DNA of 64,000 nt, taken from positions 1,120,001-1,184,000 of the forward strand of contig CBDETY010000003.1 in NCBI GenBank assembly GCA_965243025.1, written 5' to 3'. The notes under the pieces were generated by a model that did no database searches, was not told where the DNA came from, and saw only the letters and a list, made by a program, of their open reading frames with translations. Shown in pieces: positions 2 to 53,688 of the stretch (positions within the stretch are counted from its first letter, which is position 1; each line of letters begins with the position of its first letter). Position numbers and translations under genes: made by a program. The stretch is from Candidatus Latescibacterota bacterium. GTDB taxonomy: Bacteria; Latescibacterota; UBA2968; UBA8231.

Positions 2-709
2 ATCCCGGTGGGTGAGGAGGTGGTGATTTCCTACGCCATCAGCGCCGGCGTCGAACCGGGTTCCGACGGATTCGACGCCCTGCACATCGCCACTCCCTCG
101 CAACCGAGGTTCCTCAGCTTGATGGCGGGCACTCCCCTGGCCGCCCTCGAGCCGGAGGAAGTGCTCGAGGAGGAGGACGGCCTGACCCTGTTCCTTCCCG
201 AGCGCGTCGAAAGCGACCGGGATCTGCGCATCGATTTCGGAGTGACTCTGTTCACCGTCTCGGCGCAGCTGAACGGAGCGGTGTTCAACCGCGACAAGAG
301 CGACCGCAGGCAGTTCATCGAGGCCGGCGATGCCAGCCAGGAGATCGGCAGCGACCTGCTCCAGCTGGTGGCCGACGACAACTCGGTGCGCCGCACCCTG
401 GGAGACATCGCCATCCGCCCGCGGGTGATCACACCGAACCAGGACGGACGCAACGACCTCCTGCAGATCGACTACACCCTTTTCGGGGTCCTCGGAACGG
501 ACGTCGAGATCCTGGTTTACGACCTGGCAGGACGATTGGTGAGCAGGTTCCCGGCCTCCGGCCGGACCGCGGGCACCCACACGGTGCAGTGGAACGGCAT
601 GGATGAATCGGGGCAGGTTCTTCCCCCCGGTGCCTACCTGTGCGAGATTGCAGCCGAGACCGGTGCCGGCCGTTTCCAGTCCATCAGGCCGATCGCGGTG
701 GCGTACTGA
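2..709 (+). CDS. Surface protein with C-terminal FlgD-Ig/gliding-motility-like sorting domain (5' partial)
   Basis: Frame is open from the window edge. The C-terminus ITPNQDGRND...VYDLAGRLV...WNGMDESGQVLPPGAY is typical of FlgD_ig-like domains and is paralogous to the next gene. Confidence 0.8.
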   Translation: MPVGEEVVISYAISAGVEPGSDGFDALHIATPSQPRFLSLMAGTPLAALEPEEVLEEEDGLTLFLPERVESDRDLRIDFGVTLFTVSAQLNGAVFNRDKSDRRQFIEAGDASQEIGSDLLQLVADDNSVRRTLGDIAIRPRVITPNQDGRNDLLQIDYTLFGVLGTDVEILVYDLAGRLVSRFPASGRTAGTHTVQWNGMDESGQVLPPGAYLCEIAAETGAGRFQSIRPIAVAY

Positions 710-720
710 AAACAAGGCAG

Positions 721-3045
721 ATGGCCATGAAATCGATACGCTGGTGTTCAGCTTTCCTGCTCCTGACCAGTTTCGCCCCTGTCGATACGGGGGGCGATAC
801 CTACCGGGTAAACAGGCAGTCGCAGTGGGAGGAATGGAAGTTCCCCAAGGGGGTCCTGGAATTCGTTCCGGAAGGGCTTACGCTGACCAGGTACGGCCGA
901 AACATCAATGCCGCACTCAACGCTGCCGAATTCACCCACGCCCTGGCTGGAAACAACGAGACGAATGGGGGAGTGTGGGCGGTGGGCTCGAATGCCCGCA
1001 CCGCCGACCGGGTGATCGACGGGGACGCGACCACCTGGTGGCAACCGAGCCAGGGCGACGATCTCGAAGACTGGTGGATCCAGGTCGATCTCGGCCGCGC
1101 CGTGCCGGTAACGAATATCCGTGTCGTTTTTCCCGATGAGGAAGGGGCCAGGCCTCCGCGTCAGTTCCGCCTCTTCGCCAGCGATGGCGAGCGCGTTTCC
1201 CAGGGCGCCGACCTGTTCAGTTTCGAAATGCTCGGGGGTACGTCCCGCTACAACGAAGAGACCGTGGTCGAGTTCGTGCCGGCAACGCTTTCGGCAACCG
1301 CCAACCGCTTTCTCCGCGATGCCACGGTTCCTCCGGACACCACTTTCGGGACGAGCTATCGCTCCCTCCAGTACATCCGCCTGCGCATCGATGAAATGAC
1401 CGAAGACGCCTCCGTCGCCGAGATCGAAGTCTACACTTTCGGCAGCAACATCTCCCTGCAGACAATCGAGCGCGGCGGCAGCGTAGTGGAGGCCTCGGGA
1501 CGCGGAGAGGTGCTGGTCGACGGCGACTTCAACACGGCCTGGTCCCAGTCGATCCGCGGGCAGGACATCATTTTCGTATGGGATCTCGGCGCCACCTTCT
1601 GGATGGAACGCCTGCTCATGCTCGGGGCCTCCGCCGCCGGAACCCTTCACGGCAGCCAGACCCACGTCACGAGGATCAACGATCACTCGCTGCGGGTCTC
1701 CACGGGAGAACGCACCTTTTCGGGGGAATTGAACTGGGAGCTGGTGCGGGATGTCGTCCCCCGCGGTTCATCCTTTCGCGACATTCAGTACCTCTTCGAC
1801 CCCCCCAGGGCGGTCCGGTATTTTGCCGCGGTCTGGCCCAACCGGCCCAACGGCAACATGGCTGACATGGTCGCCATTCCCGCCGGCCACGTCGCCTCGG
1901 TCGAGATGGAATCCAACTTCATCGACCTGGGTGAATTCGCCGGGGACAACCGTTCGAAGCAGATCGAAGGCATCTCCTGGGAGGGAGATATTCCCCCGGG
2001 CTCGAACGTGCAGCTGCGCACCAGGACCGGTCACAAGCTGACCAACGTGGTAACCTACTATCACAAGAACGGCGATCTGCTTTCCGGGGCCGAGGAGTAC
2101 TACGCCCTCAACAAGTTCGTACGCGGCGACACCGTTGCCTTCCTCGACGCCGGTGAGGACTGGAGCCCGTGGAGCTCGCTCTATCAGGAACAGGGACAGT
2201 CGCTGTCTCCCAGCCCGCGGCGGTTTCTGCAGATGAAGCTCGTGGTCAACTCGGAGGAGCCGGATGTCGCGCCCGTGCTCGGCAGTCTCGACGTCGAGTT
2301 CACCGACGCCATCCTGCGCGGCGCCCAGGCGGAGATACACCCGAAAGAGGCGGAACCGGTGGTGCCGGAGGAGTTTACCCTGAAGCTTTGGGGCGATTAC
2401 GGCGAGGGGGGCAGCTTCGACCAGATCCTGATAGAAACCCCCTCTCAGGTCGATCCGGTCGACCTCGAAGTTTCAGTGCGCGGGGTTGAGGTCGAACCCT
2501 CTGCGGTGAGGGCGACACCGGACTCGCTGTTGATTCAGCTGCAGGATGCGGTCAGCGACAACGCCGATACGGTTTCGGTCGACTTCGTCGCGGCAATCGA
2601 CAGGAATCCGACGATTTTCAACTCGTTCATCGGCAGCTCCGAAAGAGGGGAGTTGTGGCAGTTCGTCAACCAGGCCGAAGGGGTTCCTCACGCGACCGAG
2701 GTGTTTTTTCCATCGGTTCCGAAGAGCGGGGAACTGCTCGGCGGTTTCGCCATTGAGCCACCGGTTGCGACGCCGAATGGCGACGGCATTGGAGAAGAAG
2801 CCCGCATCAGCTTTGCGCTCCTGAACGTCGAAGTGGTTCCCGAGGTGACGATTTTCACGATGGGCGGAAACCCGGTCCGGGAGTTGGAAGGCAGCCGCGG
2901 TTCTGCCGGCCGCTACGAGTTCACCTGGTCCGGCCGGGACGGGTCGGGAAAGGTCGTTCCCCCGGGTATATACCTGGTGCGCGTGCGCGTCGCGACCCAG
3001 GCCGAGGAGCAGCAGCTGACCAGGATTGTCGGATTGGCCTACTGA
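721..3045 (+). CDS. Secreted discoidin (F5/8 type C)-like domain protein with C-terminal FlgD-Ig domain
   Basis: Signal-peptide-like start (MAMKSIRWCSAFLLL). Discoidin-like VIDGDATTWW...WIQVDLGR. C-terminal TPNGDG...WSGRDGSGKVVPPGIY. Confidence 0.8.
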   Translation: MAMKSIRWCSAFLLLTSFAPVDTGGDTYRVNRQSQWEEWKFPKGVLEFVPEGLTLTRYGRNINAALNAAEFTHALAGNNETNGGVWAVGSNARTADRVIDGDATTWWQPSQGDDLEDWWIQVDLGRAVPVTNIRVVFPDEEGARPPRQFRLFASDGERVSQGADLFSFEMLGGTSRYNEETVVEFVPATLSATANRFLRDATVPPDTTFGTSYRSLQYIRLRIDEMTEDASVAEIEVYTFGSNISLQTIERGGSVVEASGRGEVLVDGDFNTAWSQSIRGQDIIFVWDLGATFWMERLLMLGASAAGTLHGSQTHVTRINDHSLRVSTGERTFSGELNWELVRDVVPRGSSFRDIQYLFDPPRAVRYFAAVWPNRPNGNMADMVAIPAGHVASVEMESNFIDLGEFAGDNRSKQIEGISWEGDIPPGSNVQLRTRTGHKLTNVVTYYHKNGDLLSGAEEYYALNKFVRGDTVAFLDAGEDWSPWSSLYQEQGQSLSPSPRRFLQMKLVVNSEEPDVAPVLGSLDVEFTDAILRGAQAEIHPKEAEPVVPEEFTLKLWGDYGEGGSFDQILIETPSQVDPVDLEVSVRGVEVEPSAVRATPDSLLIQLQDAVSDNADTVSVDFVAAIDRNPTIFNSFIGSSERGELWQFVNQAEGVPHATEVFFPSVPKSGELLGGFAIEPPVATPNGDGIGEEARISFALLNVEVVPEVTIFTMGGNPVRELEGSRGSAGRYEFTWSGRDGSGKVVPPGIYLVRVRVATQAEEQQLTRIVGLAY

Positions 3046-46324: not shown

Positions 46325-47326
46325 CTACCTCGGGGACGCGAACAGGAATGACAACAGCGAGAAGCGCTCCCCCGAAGTCACCGGGAGCACCTCGTGCAGA
46401 AGCGAGCTGGAAAAGAGGATGGCCGCCCCTGCCGGTGGGCGGTACAGGTCAGGGCCGTACTCGGGGAAGCGCAGCTCGCCTCCCTCGAAGCCGCCGTTGA
46501 GATTGACGGTGAGCCCGAAACGGCGGTGCGCCGTCGACGGGCTGAGATTGTCCCGGTGGGCGTGGAAGAAACCGCCTTCCTCGGCCCCGTAACAGACGAT
46601 CTTGAACCCCTCGAAACGGCTGGCCCGGTAGGCGAAGGCCTTGTGCAGCTCGGGGATGACCCGGCGCCCGACATGCGAGGTCAGCCGCTGCAGCAGCCCG
46701 GGATCGCCGACCACGTGGTCGCGGCGCCGCTTGCGGTCTCCGGCGACGACACCGACGCGGCGCCCCCCCAGACTCGCCTCCACCCCGGCAGGGGCGGCTC
46801 CCTCCCGCCGCCACACCGAGATCAACTCCGCGCCCCAGGCCCCGTCCAGCACCCTCGGGACCAGGAGCACGGGCGCAGGTGATTCGACGAGCTGTCCTTC
46901 CCGCCGGCTGCAGGCCGCAGCGAGGAGCGCGGCCACTCCAGCTGCCGCCTTGGCCGGGTCGGCGAGACCCCACCACCCGAGGATGCGCAGGTTTTCGTCG
47001 AGGAGACAGGCCGTCGGTTTCGAGGCGACCCCGTACGGCTCGCTGACCGCGGTTCCGGGCTCGGTGAAGGTGTCGAAGGAGAACGGCGTTTCCCCGCTGG
47101 GGCGGCCTCCCCCGGATATGACCCCCAGGATTTCCACCCTGCCCTCGCAGGCGCGGGCAAGGGCGGCGGCGAACTTTTCGACCGCGGCCTCCTGGGAGCG
47201 GTCGGCGAAGATCAGGGCGCACGGCACGCCGCCGGCGCGGCCGTAGAAACGCACCGGGTCCCCGGAAGGGCAGGGCAGGGCGAAGTCCGGGGCGCGCATG
47301 CCCGGCGCCAGGGGGCCGCCGCTCAC
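46325..47326 (-). CDS. Redoxin (AhpC/TSA-like, no CxxC) fused to a 2OG-Fe(II) oxygenase
   Basis: APDFALP N-terminus; HRD, FEGGELRFPEY, LLHEVLPVTSGER. Confidence 0.85.
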   Translation of the reverse strand: MSGGPLAPGMRAPDFALPCPSGDPVRFYGRAGGVPCALIFADRSQEAAVEKFAAALARACEGRVEILGVISGGGRPSGETPFSFDTFTEPGTAVSEPYGVASKPTACLLDENLRILGWWGLADPAKAAAGVAALLAAACSRREGQLVESPAPVLLVPRVLDGAWGAELISVWRREGAAPAGVEASLGGRRVGVVAGDRKRRRDHVVGDPGLLQRLTSHVGRRVIPELHKAFAYRASRFEGFKIVCYGAEEGGFFHAHRDNLSPSTAHRRFGLTVNLNGGFEGGELRFPEYGPDLYRPPAGAAILFSSSLLHEVLPVTSGERFSLLSFLFASPR

Positions 47327-47668
47327 CGGACCCGGTCCCGGGATGGAGGCAGATGGATGAAACGCAGGGAAATCGCTCGTACCGGCCGGCGCTGGATTCG
47401 CATTGCGGGCATTCGAAGATCCACTCGAATTTCTCCCCGGGAACGTTTCGTCCCTCGACGCAGTTGTACCGGTGAAACCTTCCCCCCTCGTGCCTTTCCC
47501 GCGGGCAGACGACCCTGCCCCGGACCCGGGCTGTTGCAGCCGGGGGGCGCAAGCGATGGAGGGGACCCCGTCTCCTTCCTTACTTTCCCGTGACTGGCAG
47601 GGTTGACGGCGCCGCCCGGGTCGCGGTGTTCGAAGGGCATGGCATCTGCTGGGGGGTGAGCGACAAAC

Positions 47669-48898
47669 ATGAAAGGGCCGTTTCCACATGGCAAGCAGAC
47701 TGCGGGGGTCTCCATGCTGCTGGCCTCGGCACTCGTCGGTTGCTACACCCTGTCCGGCCGTTCGGACGACTTCGGCAGTGGGGCCGGCCACCTCGATGAA
47801 CGCTCGCTCGGCCAGACGCGCACGGCCGCGGCGAGGGAGGGTCAGGCCGTCGTCCTCCACCTCGAAAGCCCCGAGGCGGTGAATGCCCACCGCGGCGATA
47901 CGGGAGAGACAGGAACAGACGTGATTCCCTATGTCTTCGAGCGCCGGTCGCGCCGAACCCTGCGCATCGGGAGCTGGGCGCGCGCTTCGAGCCGGGTCGA
48001 GCTTGTCGATGCTGCCGGAGCGGTTCTGCTCACCGTCAGCGGGGCCTCACCGTCGGCCTCGGCCGAGGTTCCCCCCGGGCGCTACCGACTCCGCGTGTCC
48101 AAGGGCGAGGGGCGCAGGGGGGTGGGAACGCTGTTCGTTCGGCCCGACACGATGGTGGTCTCCAAGGACTGCCCCGGCTGCAGCCTTTCCGGGGCCGACC
48201 TCAGGAGGGCGCGGCTGGCGGCGGCGAACCTGACCGGGGCTCGCCTGAGAACCGCGGACCTCAGCCATGCGGACCTGACCGGGGCCAGGCTTTCCGGCGC
48301 CGACCTCCAGGGGGCGGTTGCCAACCGGGCGCGCATGTCCGGGGCGAACCTGAGGGAGGGGGATCTTTCCTCGTCCGACGTGATCGCCTGCGACCTGTCC
48401 GGGGCGGATCTCGGAGGGGCCGTTGCCCGCGACGCCAGCTTCGACAGCACGGCCCTGAAGGAGGCCGTCCTCTCCGGTGCCGACCTGACGCGGGCGACCC
48501 TGCGCGGCGTCGTGCTCAGCGGCGCGGACCTGCGCGGGGCCCGTTTCGTGCGCTCCGAGCTCGACGGGGCGGTCCTGAAGTCCGCACACCTGGGAGATTC
48601 CGATTTCGAGGGTGCGCGGCTGGTGGGGGCCGACCTCGGGGAAACCGTAATCGACAAGGTCAACTTCATCGCCGCCGACCTGCGCCGGGCCAACCTGAAG
48701 GGGGCCCGCCTGCGGCGGGTCAAGTTCCAGGGTTCCAGCCTGATCGGCGCAACGTGGACAGACGGGACGGTTTGCGGATACGGATCGCTGGGGCGCTGTA
48801 TTCCGATGCCCCCGGGAATGCTGCTGCCGGGGCTGATCCGGTCCGTGGTCCCGGCGGATTCGGGGGCTGTCGAGGCTCCGGGGAGGTCAGACAAGTGA
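47669..48898 (+). CDS. Pentapeptide-repeat lipoprotein
   Basis: Lipobox LVGC; long A(D/N)LxG pentapeptide tract flanked by CPGC and WTDGTVC...C. Confidence 0.85.
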   Translation: MKGPFPHGKQTAGVSMLLASALVGCYTLSGRSDDFGSGAGHLDERSLGQTRTAAAREGQAVVLHLESPEAVNAHRGDTGETGTDVIPYVFERRSRRTLRIGSWARASSRVELVDAAGAVLLTVSGASPSASAEVPPGRYRLRVSKGEGRRGVGTLFVRPDTMVVSKDCPGCSLSGADLRRARLAAANLTGARLRTADLSHADLTGARLSGADLQGAVANRARMSGANLREGDLSSSDVIACDLSGADLGGAVARDASFDSTALKEAVLSGADLTRATLRGVVLSGADLRGARFVRSELDGAVLKSAHLGDSDFEGARLVGADLGETVIDKVNFIAADLRRANLKGARLRRVKFQGSSLIGATWTDGTVCGYGSLGRCIPMPPGMLLPGLIRSVVPADSGAVEAPGRSDK

Positions 48899-49455
48899 AG
48901 GGAAATGCCGGAAGGATCGCCGCACGCGGGTTTGCCCGCTCTCGCCGGCTGGCCCTGGCGGCCGGGGCAGGCCTGTTTCTGACTGCCGCCGCCGGCGCGG
49001 CTCCGAAATCGCAGTTCACGCTGCCGACGCTGGGCGGCGGGCAGTTCTCACTGGAGGAGGCGCTGAAGAAGGGTCCGGTGGTCCTCGATTTCTGGGCGAC
49101 CTGGTGCAAGCCCTGCATCAAATCCCTGCCGAAGCTGCAGGAGATCGCCGGGGAGTATGGGGAGCGCGGGGTCGGGGTGTACACCGTGAACACCGACGGG
49201 CCGCGCAACCAGCCCAAGGTGCGGCCGTTCATGAAACGCCACCGGCTCGAGCTTCCGGTCCTTCTCGACCACACGAGACAGGTGATGAAGCAGTTTCAGC
49301 TCTCCGTCCTTCCGGCTTCCTTGATCATTTCGACCGAAGGGGCGGTAGTTTACAGGCACGTGGGGTACAAACCAGGGGACGAGACCGGGCTCCGCGACAA
49401 GCTGGCGGAGCTGCTGGGAGCGCAACCCGATTCGACGGAAGGCAGGAGCGAATGA
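48895..49455 (+). CDS. TlpA-like thiol-disulfide oxidoreductase
   Basis: Signal-like N-terminus; DFWATWCKPC. Confidence 0.92.
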   Translation: MKGNAGRIAARGFARSRRLALAAGAGLFLTAAAGAAPKSQFTLPTLGGGQFSLEEALKKGPVVLDFWATWCKPCIKSLPKLQEIAGEYGERGVGVYTVNTDGPRNQPKVRPFMKRHRLELPVLLDHTRQVMKQFQLSVLPASLIISTEGAVVYRHVGYKPGDETGLRDKLAELLGAQPDSTEGRSE

Positions 49456-50333
49456 AAGCCAGGATCAGGACTCGATGGCGAAAGGCCGCAGCGGTCGCGT
49501 GCGGTGCATTTCTCGTCGGCGGGCCGGGCGGGGCGGCGGGGCAGGTGGTCGCCGGCGACATCGCCCCCGACTTCGAGCTCGAGACCGTGGACGGACAGCT
49601 CGTCTCGCTGAGCGGCTTTCGCGACGAAAAGGTTGTCTTTCTCAACATCCTGGGGAACACCTGACCGTACTGTATCGCGGGGGCCGCGAATTCCGAAGCG
49701 ATATGGCAGGACTACGGGGGGGACCGCTTCGTCGCCCTCGGCATCGACATCTGGAACGCCAGTCCCGCCAACGTCCGGGCGGTGTGGATCGACGACGGGC
49801 TGGCCACCTATCCGATGCTCGTCAACGGGTCCGACGTCGGCAACCAGTACGGCGTGGGACAGGACTACTACTTCGTGATCGATCACGAGGGGTTCGTACG
49901 CTACCGCTCCGGCCCCGGGCCGCTCGGGGAGCGCTTCGTCGACGGGGAGATCCGCGACGCCATCGAGGCCTCCCTCGAGGCCCTCGCCGATTTTCTGGAA
50001 GAAGAGGAAGAGGTGGAGGAGATAACCACGGAGGTGGCGTCATCGCCGCAGCTTCCGGCCCGGTTCGAGGTGGGGAACGCGTATCCGAATCCCTTCAATT
50101 CCGAAACCACCCTTTCGTTCGCGGTAAGCGCGGCCGGTCTCCTCAACCTGACGCTCTTCGACCTTGGAGGCCGGGTGGTGCGGGACTGGTCCGGGCAGTA
50201 CGAGGCCGGCAGGCACTCCCTGACCTGGGACGGCCTGGACGAGGCCGGCAATCCAATGGCCAGCGGGGTGTACATCGCCTCGGCGCGCCAGGGAAGCCGC
50301 GCGATAACCCGGAAGGTCACCCTCCTGAAGTAG
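49452..50333 (+). CDS. Putative selenoprotein: exported redoxin (U-P-Y-C, Sec71) plus C-terminal FlgD/T9SS-like sorting domain
   Basis: In-frame TGA at 49662-49664 at the first redox Cys position (VFLNILGNT-U-PYC); the frame continues without a stop into the 49782-50333 ORF; C-terminal AYPNPFN...WDGLDEAGNPMASGVY...KVTLLK. Confidence 0.85.
49665..49706 (+). promoter_or_regulatory. Candidate bacterial SECIS element
   Basis: Stem TCGCGG(49675-80)/CCGCGA(49684-89) with a G-rich loop about 16 nt after the TGA; alternative longer stem TATCGC/GCGATA. Confidence 0.5.
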
Positions 50334-50372
50334 CCCACCGGCAGGGCCCCGGATCTCCGTACCGGGGCGGAT

Positions 50373-51140
50373 TCACCACCGCCGGACCGGCTGCTCCACG
50401 AGGGCCTCCCTGAGGCTTTCGATCTGCCTGCCGGACAGTCCGGCGGAGCGGGCGAACCCCTCGGCCCCTCCGTACCGGGTCTCGAGGAAGTCGAGGACCT
50501 TGAGCATGCTTTCCGGCGGGCAGAACTCGCGCTGGTAGTCGCGCCAGTCGCGAAGGACCGCTCCCCCTTCGACCTCGGGGGGTGCCGACTGCCAGCGATC
50601 CCACAGGTACCTCCCCGTCAGGCCGTAGTCCTCGGCAATCGTCTCCTTCGCAACACCGGCGAGCTCGAGAAGCAGGGCGCTGATCACCCCGGTCCGGTCC
50701 TTGCCCCCGGCGCAGTGGTACAGGGCCGGAAGGGCTTCCGGCTCGGCCAGGGTCGCCAGCACCTCCCCGACCTGTTCTTCGCGATGCTCGATCCAGGAGG
50801 AGTAGGAGCCGAAGATCCTTTCCGCAGGGGTGCCGTCGGCGATGGAATAAGGGAGGGGCTCGTCGCCGGCGAGGTTGTGGTGGCGGTAGCTGACCTCCGC
50901 CGAGGACGCGAAGACGTTGGGCAGCTCAGCCAGCTCCCGGGTCCGGCGCAGGTCGATGACGGTGCGCAGCCCGAACCCGAGGAGGGTCTGCTGGTCGTCT
51001 GCCGTCAGCCGGTACATGTTGTCGGCCCGGAAGAAGGTTCGCCACCGAACCCGGCGTCCCTCCGTCGTGGGGTAGCCCCCAATGTCCCGGATGTTGAATG
51101 CCCCTTCCATTTCGATTCTCCGGCCGGGTTCTTCGCCCAT
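50373..51140 (-). CDS. Protein tyrosine/serine phosphatase (Y_phosphatase3/IphP-like)
   Basis: NIRDIGGY, IDLR, HCAGGKDRTG, DYGLT. Confidence 0.92.
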   Translation of the reverse strand: MGEEPGRRIEMEGAFNIRDIGGYPTTEGRRVRWRTFFRADNMYRLTADDQQTLLGFGLRTVIDLRRTRELAELPNVFASSAEVSYRHHNLAGDEPLPYSIADGTPAERIFGSYSSWIEHREEQVGEVLATLAEPEALPALYHCAGGKDRTGVISALLLELAGVAKETIAEDYGLTGRYLWDRWQSAPPEVEGGAVLRDWRDYQREFCPPESMLKVLDFLETRYGGAEGFARSAGLSGRQIESLREALVEQPVRRW

Positions 51141-51296
51141 TGCTTTCCTTTCCATTTTTCGGGTTGAATCGTGCCCGCAGTCGGGTCGGTTGGTACCGGG
51201 TTTGTCGACAGGCGGTGGCTTGAGATCGGGCGGCCGGAGGCAGGGACTTTCAGATCAAACAGCCCGCCCCTGTTGCTCCGACCGGTTCGCAATCGA

Positions 51297-52853
51297 TTAC
51301 AGCACTTTGCTCGTAAGGCGAATCTCCAGCCCTTCGAATCCGAGCACCTCGTAGCAGGTTCCCCCGGTGCAGGCGAGACCGGTGCGCCGTTTGCCGGCGA
51401 ACAGGGTTGCGGTATGCGCCTCGCGGAACAGCCAGCTCGTCCCCAGGGCCCACCACCAGGTCGCGCCCGCCTGCGAGGCCCCGGTTTCAAGCGGGTCGTT
51501 GGACCGCTGCAGCTGCAGCGACCAGGTCCAGGCGGGAAAGCGGCTGACCTCGGCCGCCGCCAGCAGGTTCTCGTAGGGGAAGCGCCTGCTGCCGAAACGG
51601 CGGTCGACGTCCTGGAACTGAAGGTCGGCGGCAAGGGCGTACCGGGAGCCCGCGGACCAGTCCCACCGGGTGCCCGCGGTCACCCGCTTCTCGTTCTCCA
51701 GTATGCGGGTGCGCGCGTAATCGAAGAAGACCTGCCCGTACAGCGCCTCCCCCACCGGGGAATCGAGCTGCATGAAGTACTCGCTCAGGGACTTCGCCTC
51801 CTCGCCGGGACGGGGCCCCCGGCGGGTGGCGAGGTTCCAGGCGGCGATCAGCCCGACCTGCCGCGGCAGGGCCCAGGTCAGCTCCGCCTGAAACCCGGTT
51901 TCGTCGTCGGGCAGCAGGGTGTGCGTCTGCCGGTTCAGGAGGAAGGCTTCGTGCTCCCGGATCAGCGTCGGCGGGTTGTTGATGGCGGGGAAGTTGAAGC
52001 CGTCGTAGTCCTTGAACTCGAGGCTCAGCCCCCAGGCGCCCCCCGTGAAGGTGCTTGAAAGGTAGAGCCCCCGCGCGTGCTCGCGGTCGAGGGAGAACCA
52101 GCTGTCGAGAGCCGGATCGATGCGGGCGTACTCGCCGTACAGGTCGCCGTACCAGTCCGGCAGACCGAGCGCCTCCAGCAGCCGTCCGAGACGGACCCGG
52201 GCATGGGTGGTGGCGCCGCGTTCTTCGCCGTCGAAGTCGAGCACTCCCGTCCCGAACTCGAGGCCGGTCCAGGGGCTGGCCCTGAAAGCCCCCCCGGAAA
52301 CGCGGCCGAGGCGGCGGTCGGGGCCCTTCCTGCCGGGGGCGACCTCGCTGTCCACCGGGCGGCCGGTGAGCAGCAGCACCTCGACGTCTCCCCGGCGGTA
52401 GCGGACCTGGAACCCGTCGAGGTCCTGCGTTATCTGGTAGCGTCTCCGGGAGACGCGGTTTTCGGTGATGACCCCGGGAAGCTCGAAGGCGTGCAGCAGC
52501 AGGCCGCTGCCGACCAGGGTGAGGCAGGTCCCCGCGGTCGCCTCGAAGCCTCCCTGCCGGTAGGAGAGGGAGCGCTGGGCGAGATGGAAGTAGTCGCGTC
52601 CGCTTTCGCTGGAGCGGAAGGCCTCGCTGCGCAGGCTGGCGAGGAATCCCGAGGTTTCCAAACCGAAGTTCAGCTGCTGGTACACGGTGCGCAGATCGCG
52701 CGGCTCGGACCCCGGCAGGTTGCCTAGCTGGTACTCGTGGTGGGCGGTGAGCTGCGGCTGGGAGACGGCGGGGGGCGCTGCCAGCATGCCTGCGAGAAAC
52801 AGACGGGCGGCTCGCCGGCGGGGTGATGTAGCTTTATCTGCTTTCTGCGGCAT
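51297..52853 (-). CDS. DUF6029-like outer-membrane beta-barrel protein with C-terminal CxGGxC
   Basis: Signal-like N-terminus; EFKDY...NNPPTL.REH; C-terminal GKRRTGLACTGGTCYEVLGFEG. Confidence 0.7.
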   Translation of the reverse strand: MPQKADKATSPRRRAARLFLAGMLAAPPAVSQPQLTAHHEYQLGNLPGSEPRDLRTVYQQLNFGLETSGFLASLRSEAFRSSESGRDYFHLAQRSLSYRQGGFEATAGTCLTLVGSGLLLHAFELPGVITENRVSRRRYQITQDLDGFQVRYRRGDVEVLLLTGRPVDSEVAPGRKGPDRRLGRVSGGAFRASPWTGLEFGTGVLDFDGEERGATTHARVRLGRLLEALGLPDWYGDLYGEYARIDPALDSWFSLDREHARGLYLSSTFTGGAWGLSLEFKDYDGFNFPAINNPPTLIREHEAFLLNRQTHTLLPDDETGFQAELTWALPRQVGLIAAWNLATRRGPRPGEEAKSLSEYFMQLDSPVGEALYGQVFFDYARTRILENEKRVTAGTRWDWSAGSRYALAADLQFQDVDRRFGSRRFPYENLLAAAEVSRFPAWTWSLQLQRSNDPLETGASQAGATWWWALGTSWLFREAHTATLFAGKRRTGLACTGGTCYEVLGFEGLEIRLTSKVL

Positions 52854-52902
52854 CGTAGTTTCTCGACACAGGGAAAAACAAGCGATTCGGCGGTTAGGCT
52901 CA

Positions 52903-53688
52903 ATGGAGCGATCTGTTTTCGAGGGGCTGGACGGCAAGCAGGGGGCAGAGCGGTCGGAGAAACCGCGGACGGCAGGCCTGACCATGGCGGTCGACTGGGG
53001 CATGGGGCTGAACCGGCAAAGAGACCTGCAGGATTCGAGCGGTCCTTACATTGATTTTGCAAAGGTGGCGGTCGGTGTTTCCCGGCTTCTTTCCGGCTCC
53101 ATGCTGCAGGAAAAGATCGACTCCTATCTCGCCGCGGACATAGAGCCTTTTCCGGGGGGGCAGTACCTCGAGTACGCCGAAAGGGAAGGGAAGCTGGAGC
53201 GCTATTTGGAGGCGGTCGCCGAGGCCGGTTACCGCTGGGTGGAGGTCTCCGACAACCTGCTTCCCGCAACAGCGGCCTGGAAGGAAAGGACCATACGCAG
53301 GGCCCGGGAGGAGTTCGGCCTGAACGTCCTCGGCGAGGTCGGCAGGAAGGAGGGCCTCGAGAACTCCATACCCCTGCCCGACAACGCCGGTATATGCCTC
53401 GGAGCCGGGGCCCGGCTCATCCTTCTGGAAGCCGCCGAGCTGCTGGCAGGCGACGCCGCGACGCCGGCAGCAGTCGAGGAGATCGTCGCGGCCGCCGGCC
53501 TGGAGAAGGTGATGTTCGAGCTTCCCGGGCCGTGGATCGAAGGGGTGACCGACACCGACGTCCACCGCCTTCGGCGCGACCTGATCGACCGCTACGGAAC
53601 CGAGGTCAACATCGGCAACGTCGCTCCCGACGACCTGATGTCGCTCGAAACCTACCGCCGCGGACTCGGAGTCAACGCCGGCAGCTGA
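52903..53688 (+). CDS. comA: Phosphosulfolactate synthase (ComA family)
   Basis: KPRTAGLTMAVDWG, YIDFAK, FPGG, VEVSD, GEVGRK, VNIGNV...LETYRRGL. Confidence 0.85.
   Translation: MERSVFEGLDGKQGAERSEKPRTAGLTMAVDWGMGLNRQRDLQDSSGPYIDFAKVAVGVSRLLSGSMLQEKIDSYLAADIEPFPGGQYLEYAEREGKLERYLEAVAEAGYRWVEVSDNLLPATAAWKERTIRRAREEFGLNVLGEVGRKEGLENSIPLPDNAGICLGAGARLILLEAAELLAGDAATPAAVEEIVAAAGLEKVMFELPGPWIEGVTDTDVHRLRRDLIDRYGTEVNIGNVAPDDLMSLETYRRGLGVNAGS

Follow-up and report, generated by a model that had tools for sequence, protein, structure and literature searches.

The single in-frame TGA of a 293-codon gene in the window (the whole 64,000-nt stretch of DNA that was analysed) almost certainly encodes selenocysteine (Sec), as judged from the comparison of homologous sequences. 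The product is probably an exported thiol-disulfide oxidoreductase that carries Sec in its active site and a C-terminal sorting tail of the type IX secretion system (T9SS), a reading in which the insertion of Sec, the export of the protein, its dependence on T9SS, its substrate and the part played by the neighboring gene are all deduced from sequence. The gene extends an already known class of bacterial selenoproteins by a mis-annotated member and does not represent a new principle. The positions of the gene, of its parts and of the two genes upstream of it are summarized in Table 1.

Table 1. Features of the Sec redoxin gene and its upstream neighbors, in positions of the window
Feature	Positions	Strand	Remarks
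Pentapeptide-repeat protein gene, first of an overlapping three-gene string	47669..48898	+	Pfam PF00805, 174 bits
Cys-type TlpA-like thiol-disulfide oxidoreductase gene, FWATWCKPC, signal/anchor-like N-terminus	48895..49455	+	directly upstream of the Sec gene
Selenoprotein ORF, 293 codons	49452..50333	+	ATG 49452, Sec-UGA 49662-49664, stop TAG 50331-50333
Signal-peptide-like N-terminus, aa 1-30: basic n-region, hydrophobic AAAVACGAFLVGG, small residues before Q31	49452..49541	+	predicted from sequence
AhpC/TSA-Redoxin (TlpA-like) thioredoxin-fold domain, aa 35-151	49554..49904	+	Pfam, AF2, Foldseek, PDB profile search
Predicted selenocysteine U71 (UGA), first residue of U-P-Y-C74	49662..49664	+	TGA column conserved; stop-free homologs with Cys; Sec machinery in the genome
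Cys74 codon TGT, predicted resolving Cys of UxxC	49671..49673	+	invariant in two homolog alignments
SECIS-like hairpin: stem 49675-49680 / 49684-49689, loop GGG 49681-49683	49675..49689	+	conservation
Acidic disordered linker, aa 189-217, EEEEEVEE...	50016..50102	+	AF2 pLDDT <50; length differs among homologs
C-terminal beta-sandwich sorting domain (T9SS type A CTD / FlgD-Ig-like), aa 211-289	50082..50318	+	TIGR04183, PF13860, AF2

The open-reading-frame list contains two separate ORFs in this region (49104..49664 and 49782..50333, forward strand), which the first-pass annotation had proposed to be pieces of one gene. Indeed, both share a single frame with the ATG at 49452, and translation of 49452-50333 with TGA read as U yields 293 residues, the TGA being the sole in-frame stop before the terminal TAG. 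All peptide strings quoted in support of the proposal (APDFELETVDG, VFLNILGNT-U-PYC, FVIDHEGFVRY, YPNPFN, WDG, ASGVY and TLLK) are present in this translation, and the orthologs have the same Met start and the same ending (...TLLK/LLLR).

The gene overlaps its upstream neighbor: the TGA stop of the TlpA-like gene and the ATG of the selenoprotein gene form an ATGA, and the likely GTG start of the TlpA-like gene at 48895 overlaps the stop of the preceding gene in the same way (GTGA). Because of the overlap of stop and start codons, the Sec gene and the TlpA-like gene are probably co-transcribed. Of 36 distinct loci, 24 have a TlpA-like homolog (54-92% identity) immediately in front of the Sec gene. 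A conserved place in the operon was rejected for the pentapeptide-repeat gene, as tblastn found this gene upstream solely in the three genomes of the genus (L026, L038 and L039).

In all 17 rows of the alignment, a basic-hydrophobic-AxA pattern was recognized by eye at the N-terminus, and in orthologs AEA, AQA or ASA directly precedes Q at the matching position, likewise by eye; residues 1-29 have a pLDDT below 50 in the AF2 model. At the other end, NCBIfam TIGR04183 (T9SS type A sorting domain) matches residues 211-289 of 293 with 33.1 bits (cut-off 23), and the Pfam family FlgD_ig (PF13860) matches residues 217-278 with 37.2 bits (cut-off 27), whereas Por_Secre_tail (PF18962) remains at 22.4 bits, below its cut-off of 27. 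Thus, a type A sorting domain at the extreme C-terminus is recognized by TIGR04183, but not by PF18962. The AF2 model folds this tail into a sandwich of seven strands (pLDDT 80-92). The genome encodes two copies of PorU (621 and 615 bits, cut-off 420), SprA (470 and 119 bits, cut-off 200) and, adjoining one of the PorU copies, a PorV-like gene that scores 95.6 + 49.4 bits in two pieces, below the cut-off of 250; in addition, 140 other ORFs have a matching tail. The sorting domain noted in the first-pass annotation can therefore be specified, by the NCBIfam threshold, as a T9SS type A domain, and the genome that encodes it also has PorU, SprA and a PorV-like gene. Given these components and the 140 other tails, surface display or secretion is plausible, and T9SS-dependent export of the Sec redoxin appears likely from the sequence features. 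The most likely route would lead from the N-terminal signal peptide through SecYEG, followed by folding in the periplasm; the tail would then be recognized by the T9SS translocon (SprA/PorV), and its cleavage by PorU would result in surface anchoring or release.

The signal peptide and the T9SS tail together would make the protein an extracellular or surface-exposed bacterial selenoprotein, which raises the questions why Sec should be employed in an extracellular protein and what its reductant is at that site. An obvious electron donor is lacking for an extracellular Sec redoxin, a point against it. DsbD/CcdA-type reductant relays are periplasmic, not extracellular. The availability of reductants in the periplasm, and not outside the cell, would suit a genuine selenoprotein that remains periplasmic, with the FlgD-Ig-like sandwich as a binding or scaffolding domain instead of a working T9SS signal, a reading that we regard as unlikely. 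Such a protein would act together with the TlpA-like neighbor, for example by reducing or isomerizing disulfide bonds in envelope proteins or in cargo of the T9SS, and it would fit the conserved partner gene, which encodes a periplasm-facing TlpA-like protein, as well as the scores of the tail, which exceed the cut-off for FlgD_ig and not for Por_Secre_tail. It would also fit the variation within the family: the tail is absent in three members of about 200 aa (L050, L070 and L082) and replaced by EF-hand-like repeats in two others (L052 and L053). However, the tail exceeds the TIGR04183 cut-off, that of the homolog L083 passes even Por_Secre_tail (29 bits versus 27), the domain follows a flexible linker at the extreme C-terminus, which is also its place in the other 140 ORFs with this tail, and PorU and SprA are present. 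On the preferred reading, an exported Sec redoxin with a T9SS tail, the Cys-type TlpA-like neighbor may set the redox state of the Sec redoxin while the latter is in the periplasm.

The catalytic half of the protein had been described as a thioredoxin-fold redoxin with a UxxC motif, and four lines of evidence agree with this description. In Pfam, AhpC-TSA (PF00578) matches residues 35-151 with 48.9 bits (cut-off 26, E 7.7e-13), and Redoxin (PF08534) scores 42.2 bits (cut-off 26.6). Residues 31-188 are modeled by AF2 with a pLDDT of 84-97; a strand (61-67) is followed by U71 and a helix (72-76/78-88), all with pLDDT >84, so that the first long helix of the thioredoxin fold carries the (C/U)xxC motif at its N-terminus. 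Foldseek retrieves AhpE, ResA and CcmG with E-values from 1e-10 to 1e-8, and a profile search of PDB sequences retrieves the TlpA-like protein 3kcm (E 9e-20) and ResA 4nmu (2.9e-14). The position of the TGA, which had been placed at the first residue of the redox CxxC, was confirmed by two alignments: UxxC aligns with the CxxC of 3kcm, 2ls5, 3hdc and 4nmu, with U71 on the first Cys of WCPPC, and U71 also aligns with the first Cys of WCxxC in the neighboring TlpA-like protein. U71 would therefore replace the attacking N-terminal Cys of a CxxC motif, C74 would be the resolving residue, and the protein would be an extracytoplasmic thiol-disulfide (selenol/selenenylsulfide) oxidoreductase. Two selenoprotein families were rejected as assignments, namely the deiodinase-related family NF038285 (35.1 bits, cut-off 250) and the WAxxUGC_long family NF041054 (19.3 bits, cut-off 300).

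The best Pfam family of this domain is AhpC/TSA and its best structural match in Foldseek is the 1-Cys peroxiredoxin AhpE (E 1.5e-10, TM 0.80 on the target). In addition, reduction of peroxides is a reaction to which Sec in a thioredoxin fold lends itself well (GPx, Sec-Prx), and the sequence occurs in sponge and marine metagenome runs. A selenoprotein that is mainly a peroxidase, with a peroxiredoxin-like selenenic-acid chemistry that would guard the cell surface against peroxides where conditions are oxic and a host is present, would be in line with these observations; nevertheless, we consider it rather improbable. Peroxiredoxins have the signature PxxxTxxC together with a conserved catalytic Arg. 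In contrast, the motif found here is G-x-x-U-x-x-C, the residue preceding U varies in the alignment (T, S, N, I or G), and no conserved Arg was seen by eye in the 17-row alignment at the strand where it is expected for peroxiredoxins. The Sec form of the signature, as given in a 2026 review (PMC13188914), is PxxxTxxU. Moreover, the strongest profile-to-sequence matches are the TlpA/ResA-like CxxC proteins, in which U71 falls on the first Cys, in favor of the thiol-disulfide oxidoreductase.

The assignment of the TGA to Sec is carried by its conservation. When the redoxin domain alone was searched against 168 genomes of the phylum (E <= 1e-10), 110 matches were obtained in 86 genomes. Exactly one in-frame TGA was present in 105 of these (one of them with an additional TAG), and no stop codon in the other five. 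The TGA occupied the U71 column in all 17 loci first inspected as well as in all eight distant TGA-bearing homologs, and a single TGA is retained down to about 30% identity. A scan of genome contigs, based on an 8-row alignment and two search patterns, yielded 18 loci, with TGA at this column in 13 and Cys in five; because one of the patterns spans the Sec codon as Cys, Sec forms were caught solely by the other, and the count of 18 loci is a minimum. Cys was also found in the four stop-free matches of the phylum search that were fetched, and in a full-length form (P0019, GYGCPHC) that has kept the redoxin-plus-tail architecture; the Cys-bearing loci include L090-L093 and L115-L119. In L051, a Cys paralog (GYSCKYC) directly adjoins a Sec paralog (GYTUTYC). 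Thus, all mapped homologs have TGA or Cys at position 71, and neither Trp nor another residue, which the first-pass annotation had named as a refutation, occurred.

The codons on both sides of the TGA are under purifying constraint: in five orthologue pairs, dN/dS ranged from 0.09 to 0.52 for the 36 codons upstream and from 0.23 to 0.36 for the 95 codons downstream. The base directly before the UGA is an invariant C. In the genome as a whole, TGA is the commonest terminator of long frames (3540 of the 5342 open frames of at least 400 aa), and it also terminates 13 of the 29 complete family members; therefore, TGA is not reassigned genome-wide. In G010, a copy of the family contains an additional in-frame TAG, two codons ahead of the TGA, and may for this reason be decaying. 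A sequencing error, which the first-pass annotation had named as a possible objection, does not account for the TGA. Contigs from three other studies have the same TGA; one piece is identical (0 differences), another differs at 1 position along its length, and none of the listed differences affects the TGA, which is not an assembly error. Contigs of a metatranscriptome library (X20) that are 90-97% alike match 49541-49680 and 49668-49952 and represent a relative; as the TGA is not bridged by 31 letters in any of them and carry-over of DNA may be involved, they were set aside as evidence for expression.

The machinery for Sec insertion, for which a search had been suggested, is complete in the same genome. 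Profile searches identified selB (320 bits), selA (534 bits) and selD (362 bits), all above their cut-offs, and selD contains an in-frame TGA of its own. The tRNA-Sec scores 69.7 bits, above the cut-off, and ARAGORN assigns it the anticodon tca (UCA); it is encoded elsewhere in the genome, as a tRNA scan of the window found no tRNA.

A hairpin with a G-rich loop, which the first-pass annotation had also proposed, was found downstream of the TGA (UCGCGG-GGG-CCGCGA). Its stem of 6 bp starts 11 nt past the UGA, so that a stem-loop with G in the apical loop follows the codon at the place of a bacterial SECIS element. In the homologs, the hairpin occupies nt 14-28 counted from the UGA, and the loop is GGG or AGG. 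Among 32 distinct homologs, which as related genomes are non-independent samples, 92.5% of the stem cells are paired, compared with 30-51% when the partner strand is slid; two of the six stem pairs show compensatory changes, with a covariation score matched by none of 500 shuffles. Third positions of Ala codons within the stem are frozen (G in 32, C in 30 and G in 31 of 32 sequences), whereas all four bases are used at the third position of a nearby invariant Gly codon. The hairpin falls within a conserved peptide (C-[ILV]-A-[GE]-A-A), and homologs with other residues in this stretch keep a hairpin beginning at nt 14.

In the proposed RNA-folding check, the folding energy of the hairpin did not exceed that of shuffled sequences. 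For 39 nt the z-score was +0.94, and 162 of 200 shuffles equaled or surpassed the native sequence; for 81 nt the z-score was -0.13. As stability is uninformative in such GC-rich sequence, folding energy was dropped as evidence, and the weight of the hairpin rests on its conservation. An Rfam scan of 49400-50400 (E <= 10) returned six chance-level matches, none of them at the hairpin. Similar hairpins are seen in the L051 Cys paralog and, less clearly, in the L090 Cys form; therefore, either constraint on the encoded peptide or a recent conversion of Sec to Cys could account for part of the conservation. We suggest that SelB and Sec-tRNA(Sec) would be recruited by this short GC-rich hairpin and that UGA codon 71 would thereby be decoded as Sec; the module of UGA, 11 nt and hairpin could serve as a compact SECIS for the lineage.

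That the protein is not a selenoprotein, with the TGA being a real stop (a nonsense mutation or the border between two small genes) or another amino acid under a variant code, is extremely improbable: public annotation of the homologs as C-terminal proteins of 168-219 aa, the possibly decaying copy with the extra TAG and the unremarkable stability of the hairpin would be compatible with it, but it is already contradicted by the comparative data, namely a single TGA at one column in 105 of the 110 phylum matches even at low identity, dN/dS values below 1 on both sides and Cys as the only alternative residue, while a stop would split the thioredoxin fold in the middle of the active site, TGA is an ordinary stop genome-wide, and tRNA-Sec and selA/B/D are present.

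Among the known redox proteins, the best solved-structure profile matches are TlpA, ResA and CcmG/DsbE (3kcm, 4nmu, 1st9, 2b1k and others), with TM-scores of about 0.8 on the target. These resemble the Sec redoxin in their extracytoplasmic location, which is predicted here, and in the spacing of the active-site dipeptide, but they are membrane-anchored or periplasmic, have a W-C-x-x-C motif with Cys instead of G-x-x-U-x-x-C, and lack a sorting tail. ResA-type proteins have a cis-Pro before the strand that is equivalent to FVID; in contrast, no Pro was seen by eye at this place in the alignment of the Sec redoxin. With respect to architecture, the likeness is to HBP35, in which a redox domain of the thioredoxin type is joined to a T9SS C-terminal domain responsible for its secretion and for its attachment to the surface, but HBP35 uses Cys and is from Bacteroidota. 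It is the only experimentally studied precedent that we found for a T9SS-exported redoxin.

Selenoproteins that work outside the cytoplasm include periplasmic formate dehydrogenase and [NiFeSe] hydrogenase. These are loaded with their cofactors and exported in the folded state via Tat to the periplasm, whereas the small redoxin would pass the Sec translocon unfolded and then cross the outer membrane via T9SS. FdhA and hydrogenase family names are included in the 2026 review, of which the passages searched do not contain the words 'secret', 'signal peptide' or 'periplasm' (PMC13188914). Redoxin selenoproteins with UxxC have already been catalogued, in Table 1 of the same review (PMC13188914) and, under the names 'Prx-like 1' and 'Prx-like 3', in Table 2 of the GOS study (PMC2398784). 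Compared by description, these and the present protein share the Pfam families, Sec at the position of the attacking Cys, common Cys homologs and a SECIS-like hairpin directly 3' of the UGA. The present redoxin differs by the addition of a predicted signal peptide, an acidic linker and a T9SS type A tail, and by its pairing with a conserved Cys-type TlpA-like gene. Neither a T9SS-tailed form of UxxC selenoproteins nor a link between Sec and T9SS was found in the literature searched.

As a tentative generalization, it is possible that T9SS carries a whole class of bacterial selenoproteins to the cell surface or into the medium, in which Sec would have been recruited because a selenol stays active and can be re-reduced in an oxidizing milieu where a thiol is lost, and in which the TlpA-like neighbor would charge the enzyme in the periplasm before export. 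If so, bacteria of the FCB group (here a sponge- or marine-associated lineage that submitters assign to Gemmatimonadota or Latescibacterota) would spend selenium on extracellular redox chemistry, which is outside the current picture of prokaryotic selenoproteomes.

The first-pass annotation had predicted that automatic annotation misses such genes, and the databases bear this out: 16 of 17 relatives are deposited as fragments of 168-219 aa, and the three fragments that were read all begin after the TGA. Thus, the public entries of a whole Sec family are truncated; they bear the name 'T9SS type A sorting domain-containing protein' and lack the catalytic half. The scale is at least 105 such genes in the 168 genomes of the phylum. 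Because the genes are stored in this truncated form, the size of the selenoproteome and the redox capacity of uncultured lineages are underestimated. A genome-wide UxxC/CxxU read-through screen with narrow ad hoc filters (GC3, open flanks), which is not a selenoproteome count, kept 12 of 1153 candidates.

On the + strand, a single frame runs from the ATG at 49452 to the TAG at 50331-50333, and its sole interruption is the TGA at 49662-49664. The mechanical ORF list divides this frame into 49104..49664 and 49782..50333, the two pieces that the first-pass annotation had joined into one hidden exported redoxin with a sorting tail. The frame, the single TGA and the Pfam and NCBIfam matches listed in the table bear out this joining. 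With the TGA read as U, the product comprises 293 aa. Its N-terminus has a basic n-region and a hydrophobic core, to which orthologues add AxA ahead of Gln, and, read by eye, it looks like a Sec-type signal peptide.

Features of the selenoprotein gene, its neighbourhood and the host genome
Feature	Location	Strand	Remarks
2OG-Fe(II) oxygenase domain protein	window 46325-47890	-	
Pentapeptide-repeat gene	47669-48898	+	409-aa product; lipoprotein-like N-terminus
Cys-type TlpA-like redoxin	48895-49455	+	FWATWCKPC; AhpC-TSA 83 bits; signal-/anchor-like N-terminus
Sec redoxin gene	49452-50333	+	
AhpC-TSA	aa 35-151		Pfam, E 7.7e-13, over cut-off
Redoxin			Pfam, over cut-off
FlgD_ig	aa 217-278		Pfam, over cut-off
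Por_Secre_tail			Pfam, 22.4 bits, under cut-off of 27
T9SS type A sorting domain (TIGR04183)			NCBIfam, 33.1 bits, cut-off 23
Hairpin UCGCGG-GGG-CCGCGA	49675-49689	+	10 nt between UGA and stem
Y_phosphatase3-family tyrosine phosphatase	window 50373-51155	-	194 bits
ComA-like phosphosulfolactate synthase	window 52687-53688	+	170 bits
selA	host genome		534 bits, over curated cut-off
selB	host genome		320 bits, over curated cut-off
selD (L016)	G000:C3:31883-32806, outside window		362 bits, over curated cut-off
tRNA-Sec	host genome		69.7 bits; anticodon tca by ARAGORN
PorU sortases, two copies	host genome		621 and 615 bits, cut-off 420
PorV-like protein	host genome, adjoins one PorU copy		below cut-off
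SprA	host genome		over cut-off

In the AlphaFold2 model, which was built on 17 homologs, residues 31-188 adopt a thioredoxin fold (pLDDT 84-97) with U71 just ahead of helix 72-76, and the C-terminus forms a seven-strand beta-sandwich (219-291, pLDDT 80-92); no ordered structure is predicted for residues 1-29 or for the acidic linker 189-217. Among solved structures, Foldseek placed AhpE, a 1-Cys peroxiredoxin, first, followed by ResA, CcmG and the pneumococcal surface thioredoxin Etrx2. In the sequence profile search of solved proteins, TlpA/ResA-like proteins were closest (3kcm, E 9e-20), and U71 aligns with the leading Cys of the WCPPC motif in these proteins. The proposed assignment to the thioredoxin-fold U-x-x-C redoxins is thus upheld by the confident fold and by this alignment. 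Because the peroxiredoxin signature is absent from the family alignment, as read by eye, the domain is grouped among the TlpA-like or 'Prx-like thiol:disulfide oxidoreductase' redoxins rather than the true peroxiredoxins.

The survey of the host genome (6.8 Mb, 3 contigs) recovered the complete Sec machinery (selA, selB, selD and tRNA-Sec) for which the first-pass annotation had proposed a search. The selD product, that is, the selenophosphate synthetase, is probably a selenoprotein itself because its gene contains one in-frame TGA. A genome-wide reassignment of TGA is ruled out by its use as an ordinary terminator, which ends 3540 of the 5342 open frames of at least 400 aa in the host genome and is the true stop in 13 of 29 complete members of the Sec-redoxin family. 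These 13 genes (L042, L044-L046, L048, L049, L053, L066, L068, L069, L071, L072 and L076) each contain two TGAs, the first being the putative Sec codon with its hairpin and the second the stop directly after ...LLLR. The sequencing error considered in the first-pass annotation is ruled out as well: Logan contigs from the runs of three other studies cover the Sec codon, with 0 differences in one piece (49560-49793) and 1 difference in another (49541-49735), and no difference falls at 49662-49664 among the Logan matches listed. A single 6.3-kb Logan contig covers the entire stretch. The stretch itself occurs in sponge and marine metagenome runs that belong to 10 studies.

With only the redoxin domain as query, a search (E <= 1e-10) across 168 genomes of the phylum yielded 110 matches in 86 genomes. 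Exactly one in-frame TGA is present in 105 of the 110 (one of these also has a TAG), although, as with all such counts of the conserved TGA, the number of independent events is overstated because related genomes are not independent. The other 5 matches contain no stop, and the 4 of them that were fetched all have Cys at the Sec column. The TGA occupies the U71 column in every one of the 17 loci that the first search gave and in all 8 distant homologs (~30% identity); a scan of one genome per species, with at least 18 loci, gave U in 13 of 18 and Cys in 5 of 18. In one genome, a Cys paralog (GYSCKYC) adjoins a Sec paralog (GYTUTYC), and P0019 (GYGCPHC), a relative in a public protein collection, is a full-length Cys form that retains the redoxin-plus-tail architecture. 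No residue besides Sec or Cys was seen at this column in the homologs mapped, so that the Trp or other non-Cys residue expected from a simple nonsense change is absent. Across 5 orthologue pairs, dN/dS was 0.09-0.52 in the 36 codons upstream of the TGA and 0.23-0.36 in the 95 downstream codons. Comparison of these sequences makes a strong case for selenocysteine, and the UGA of 49452-50333 almost certainly encodes Sec.

All 32 distinct homologs have C as the base just 5' of the Sec-UGA (codon at window 49659-49661), despite variation of the residue preceding U (N, T, S, I, G); Sec decoding in this lineage may require this context. In another genome, a paralog (L043/L079, G010:C1:4136423-4137226) has an in-frame TAG two codons ahead of the Sec-TGA (NFFG*DUHFC), probably through decay of this copy or through an assembly error.

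Over the 39 nt after the UGA, folding gave this hairpin as the minimum-energy structure, but with no gain in energy over shuffled sequence, and the energy is therefore not counted as evidence; the case for a functional hairpin is its conservation across the aligned homologs. Across the 32 distinct homologs aligned, 92.5% of the cells for the six stem pairs are paired, compared with 30-51% in a control with the 3' strand slid. Compensatory changes occur at two pairs (C-G to G-C and G-C to U-A), and 0 of 500 shuffles reached the observed covariation score. Four paired positions are third codon positions, all frozen; the third bases of Ala codons +5, +7 and +8 are G in 32/32, C in 30/32 and G in 31/32 homologs, and an invariant Gly codon nearby uses all four third bases (entropy 1.93 bits). 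In homologs whose peptides differ here (LSRAES, KDGPSVE, RAAGPS), a hairpin likewise starts at nt 14 and has G in its loop. The picture is made less clean by a Cys paralog that shares the DGPS peptide and retains the hairpin, so that part of the conservation comes from protein constraint or from a recent Sec-to-Cys conversion. At the site of the hairpin, Rfam gave no relevant match.

The host genome contains 140 further matches to the C-terminal domain, nearly all ending long open frames; together with PorU and SprA, these mark the tail as the organism's standard cargo tag for the type IX secretion system (T9SS). Judged from these sequence matches, T9SS export would be the most economical reading, and the selenoprotein rather likely leaves the periplasm by this route. 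Two of the 140 lie at window 503-646 and 2785-3021 (G000:C3:1120503-1120646 and 1122785-1123021), and the organism's predicted T9SS cargo set is unusually large.

The ATG of the Sec gene overlaps the TGA stop of the TlpA-like gene (ATGA), whose likely GTG start in turn overlaps the stop of the pentapeptide-repeat gene (GTGA), so that three successive + strand genes are chained by stop/start overlaps. Of 36 distinct loci from several genera, 24 have a TlpA-like homolog (54-92% identity) as the gene immediately preceding the Sec gene, and the Cys-type/Sec-type redoxin pair is therefore a conserved unit. This upstream protein is more conserved than the selenoprotein; the pentapeptide gene is kept at the locus only within the genus. 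We infer that electrons might be handed over between the two redoxins in the periplasm. The tyrosine phosphatase, 2OG-Fe(II) oxygenase and ComA-like neighbours showed no connection with the selenoprotein.

UxxC redoxin-type selenoproteins are already well catalogued, and the chemistry is that of a known selenoprotein kind; 'Prx-like 1' and 'Prx-like 3' appear among the selenoproteins in the accessible part of the GOS study (PMC2398784). In the literature searched, no link of selenoproteins or selenocysteine to type IX secretion was found, and the terms 'secret', 'signal peptide' and 'periplasm' are all absent from the available main text of a selenoprotein review (PMC13188914). The nearest experimental precedent found for a T9SS-exported redoxin, HBP35 of P. 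gingivalis, is a Cys protein according to the available excerpts. Within that kind, the present gene is set apart by its secretion-tagged architecture, its conserved TlpA-like partner and its systematic mis-annotation. Automatic annotation does miss the Sec redoxin, as had been anticipated: 16 of 17 relatives in a 5.8-billion-protein collection are 168-219 aa long, and the three of these fragments that were read all start downstream of the TGA. One fragment is titled 'T9SS type A sorting domain-containing protein [Gemmatimonadetes bacterium]'. The records of related loci are labelled Candidatus Latescibacterota, Gemmatimonadota or Gemmatimonadaceae, with one Planctomycetota, and one locus with U and tail lies in a Calditrichia MAG.

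Most family members are Sec redoxins of 270-300 aa with a T9SS tail; a tailless form has ~200 aa, and another form has Ig-like and EF-hand-like repeats. A signal-like N-terminus is common to all forms, and the module would therefore be consistently extracytoplasmic. A 639-aa variant, predicted to be a secreted two-domain selenoprotein, combines the redoxin and the T9SS tail with a beta-lactamase-fold domain (PF00144, 217 bits in the Pfam run, which covered L048); this serine beta-lactamase-fold variant is found at L048, L069, L105 and L110. In L051-L053, from another family of the class, C-terminal DFDGDG...FDDFFLFA repeats with weak EF-hand matches replace the tail and, in L053, are preceded by ASH/Ig-like domains.

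A narrow ad hoc screen, as distinct from a full selenoproteome count, gave two further candidate exported UxxC selenoproteins in the host genome, outside the window: L120 (G000:C3:3790964-3791683, FYRGGW-U-GYC) and L121 (G000:C3:5085615-5086232, FYRGFF-U-GGC), whose read-through products match PF00578 at 75.7 and 97.5 bits. Both are of the AhpC/TSA type, with a signal- or lipoprotein-like N-terminus, and in both a CCAGCU-loop-AGCUGG hairpin follows the TGA at a distance of 14 nt.
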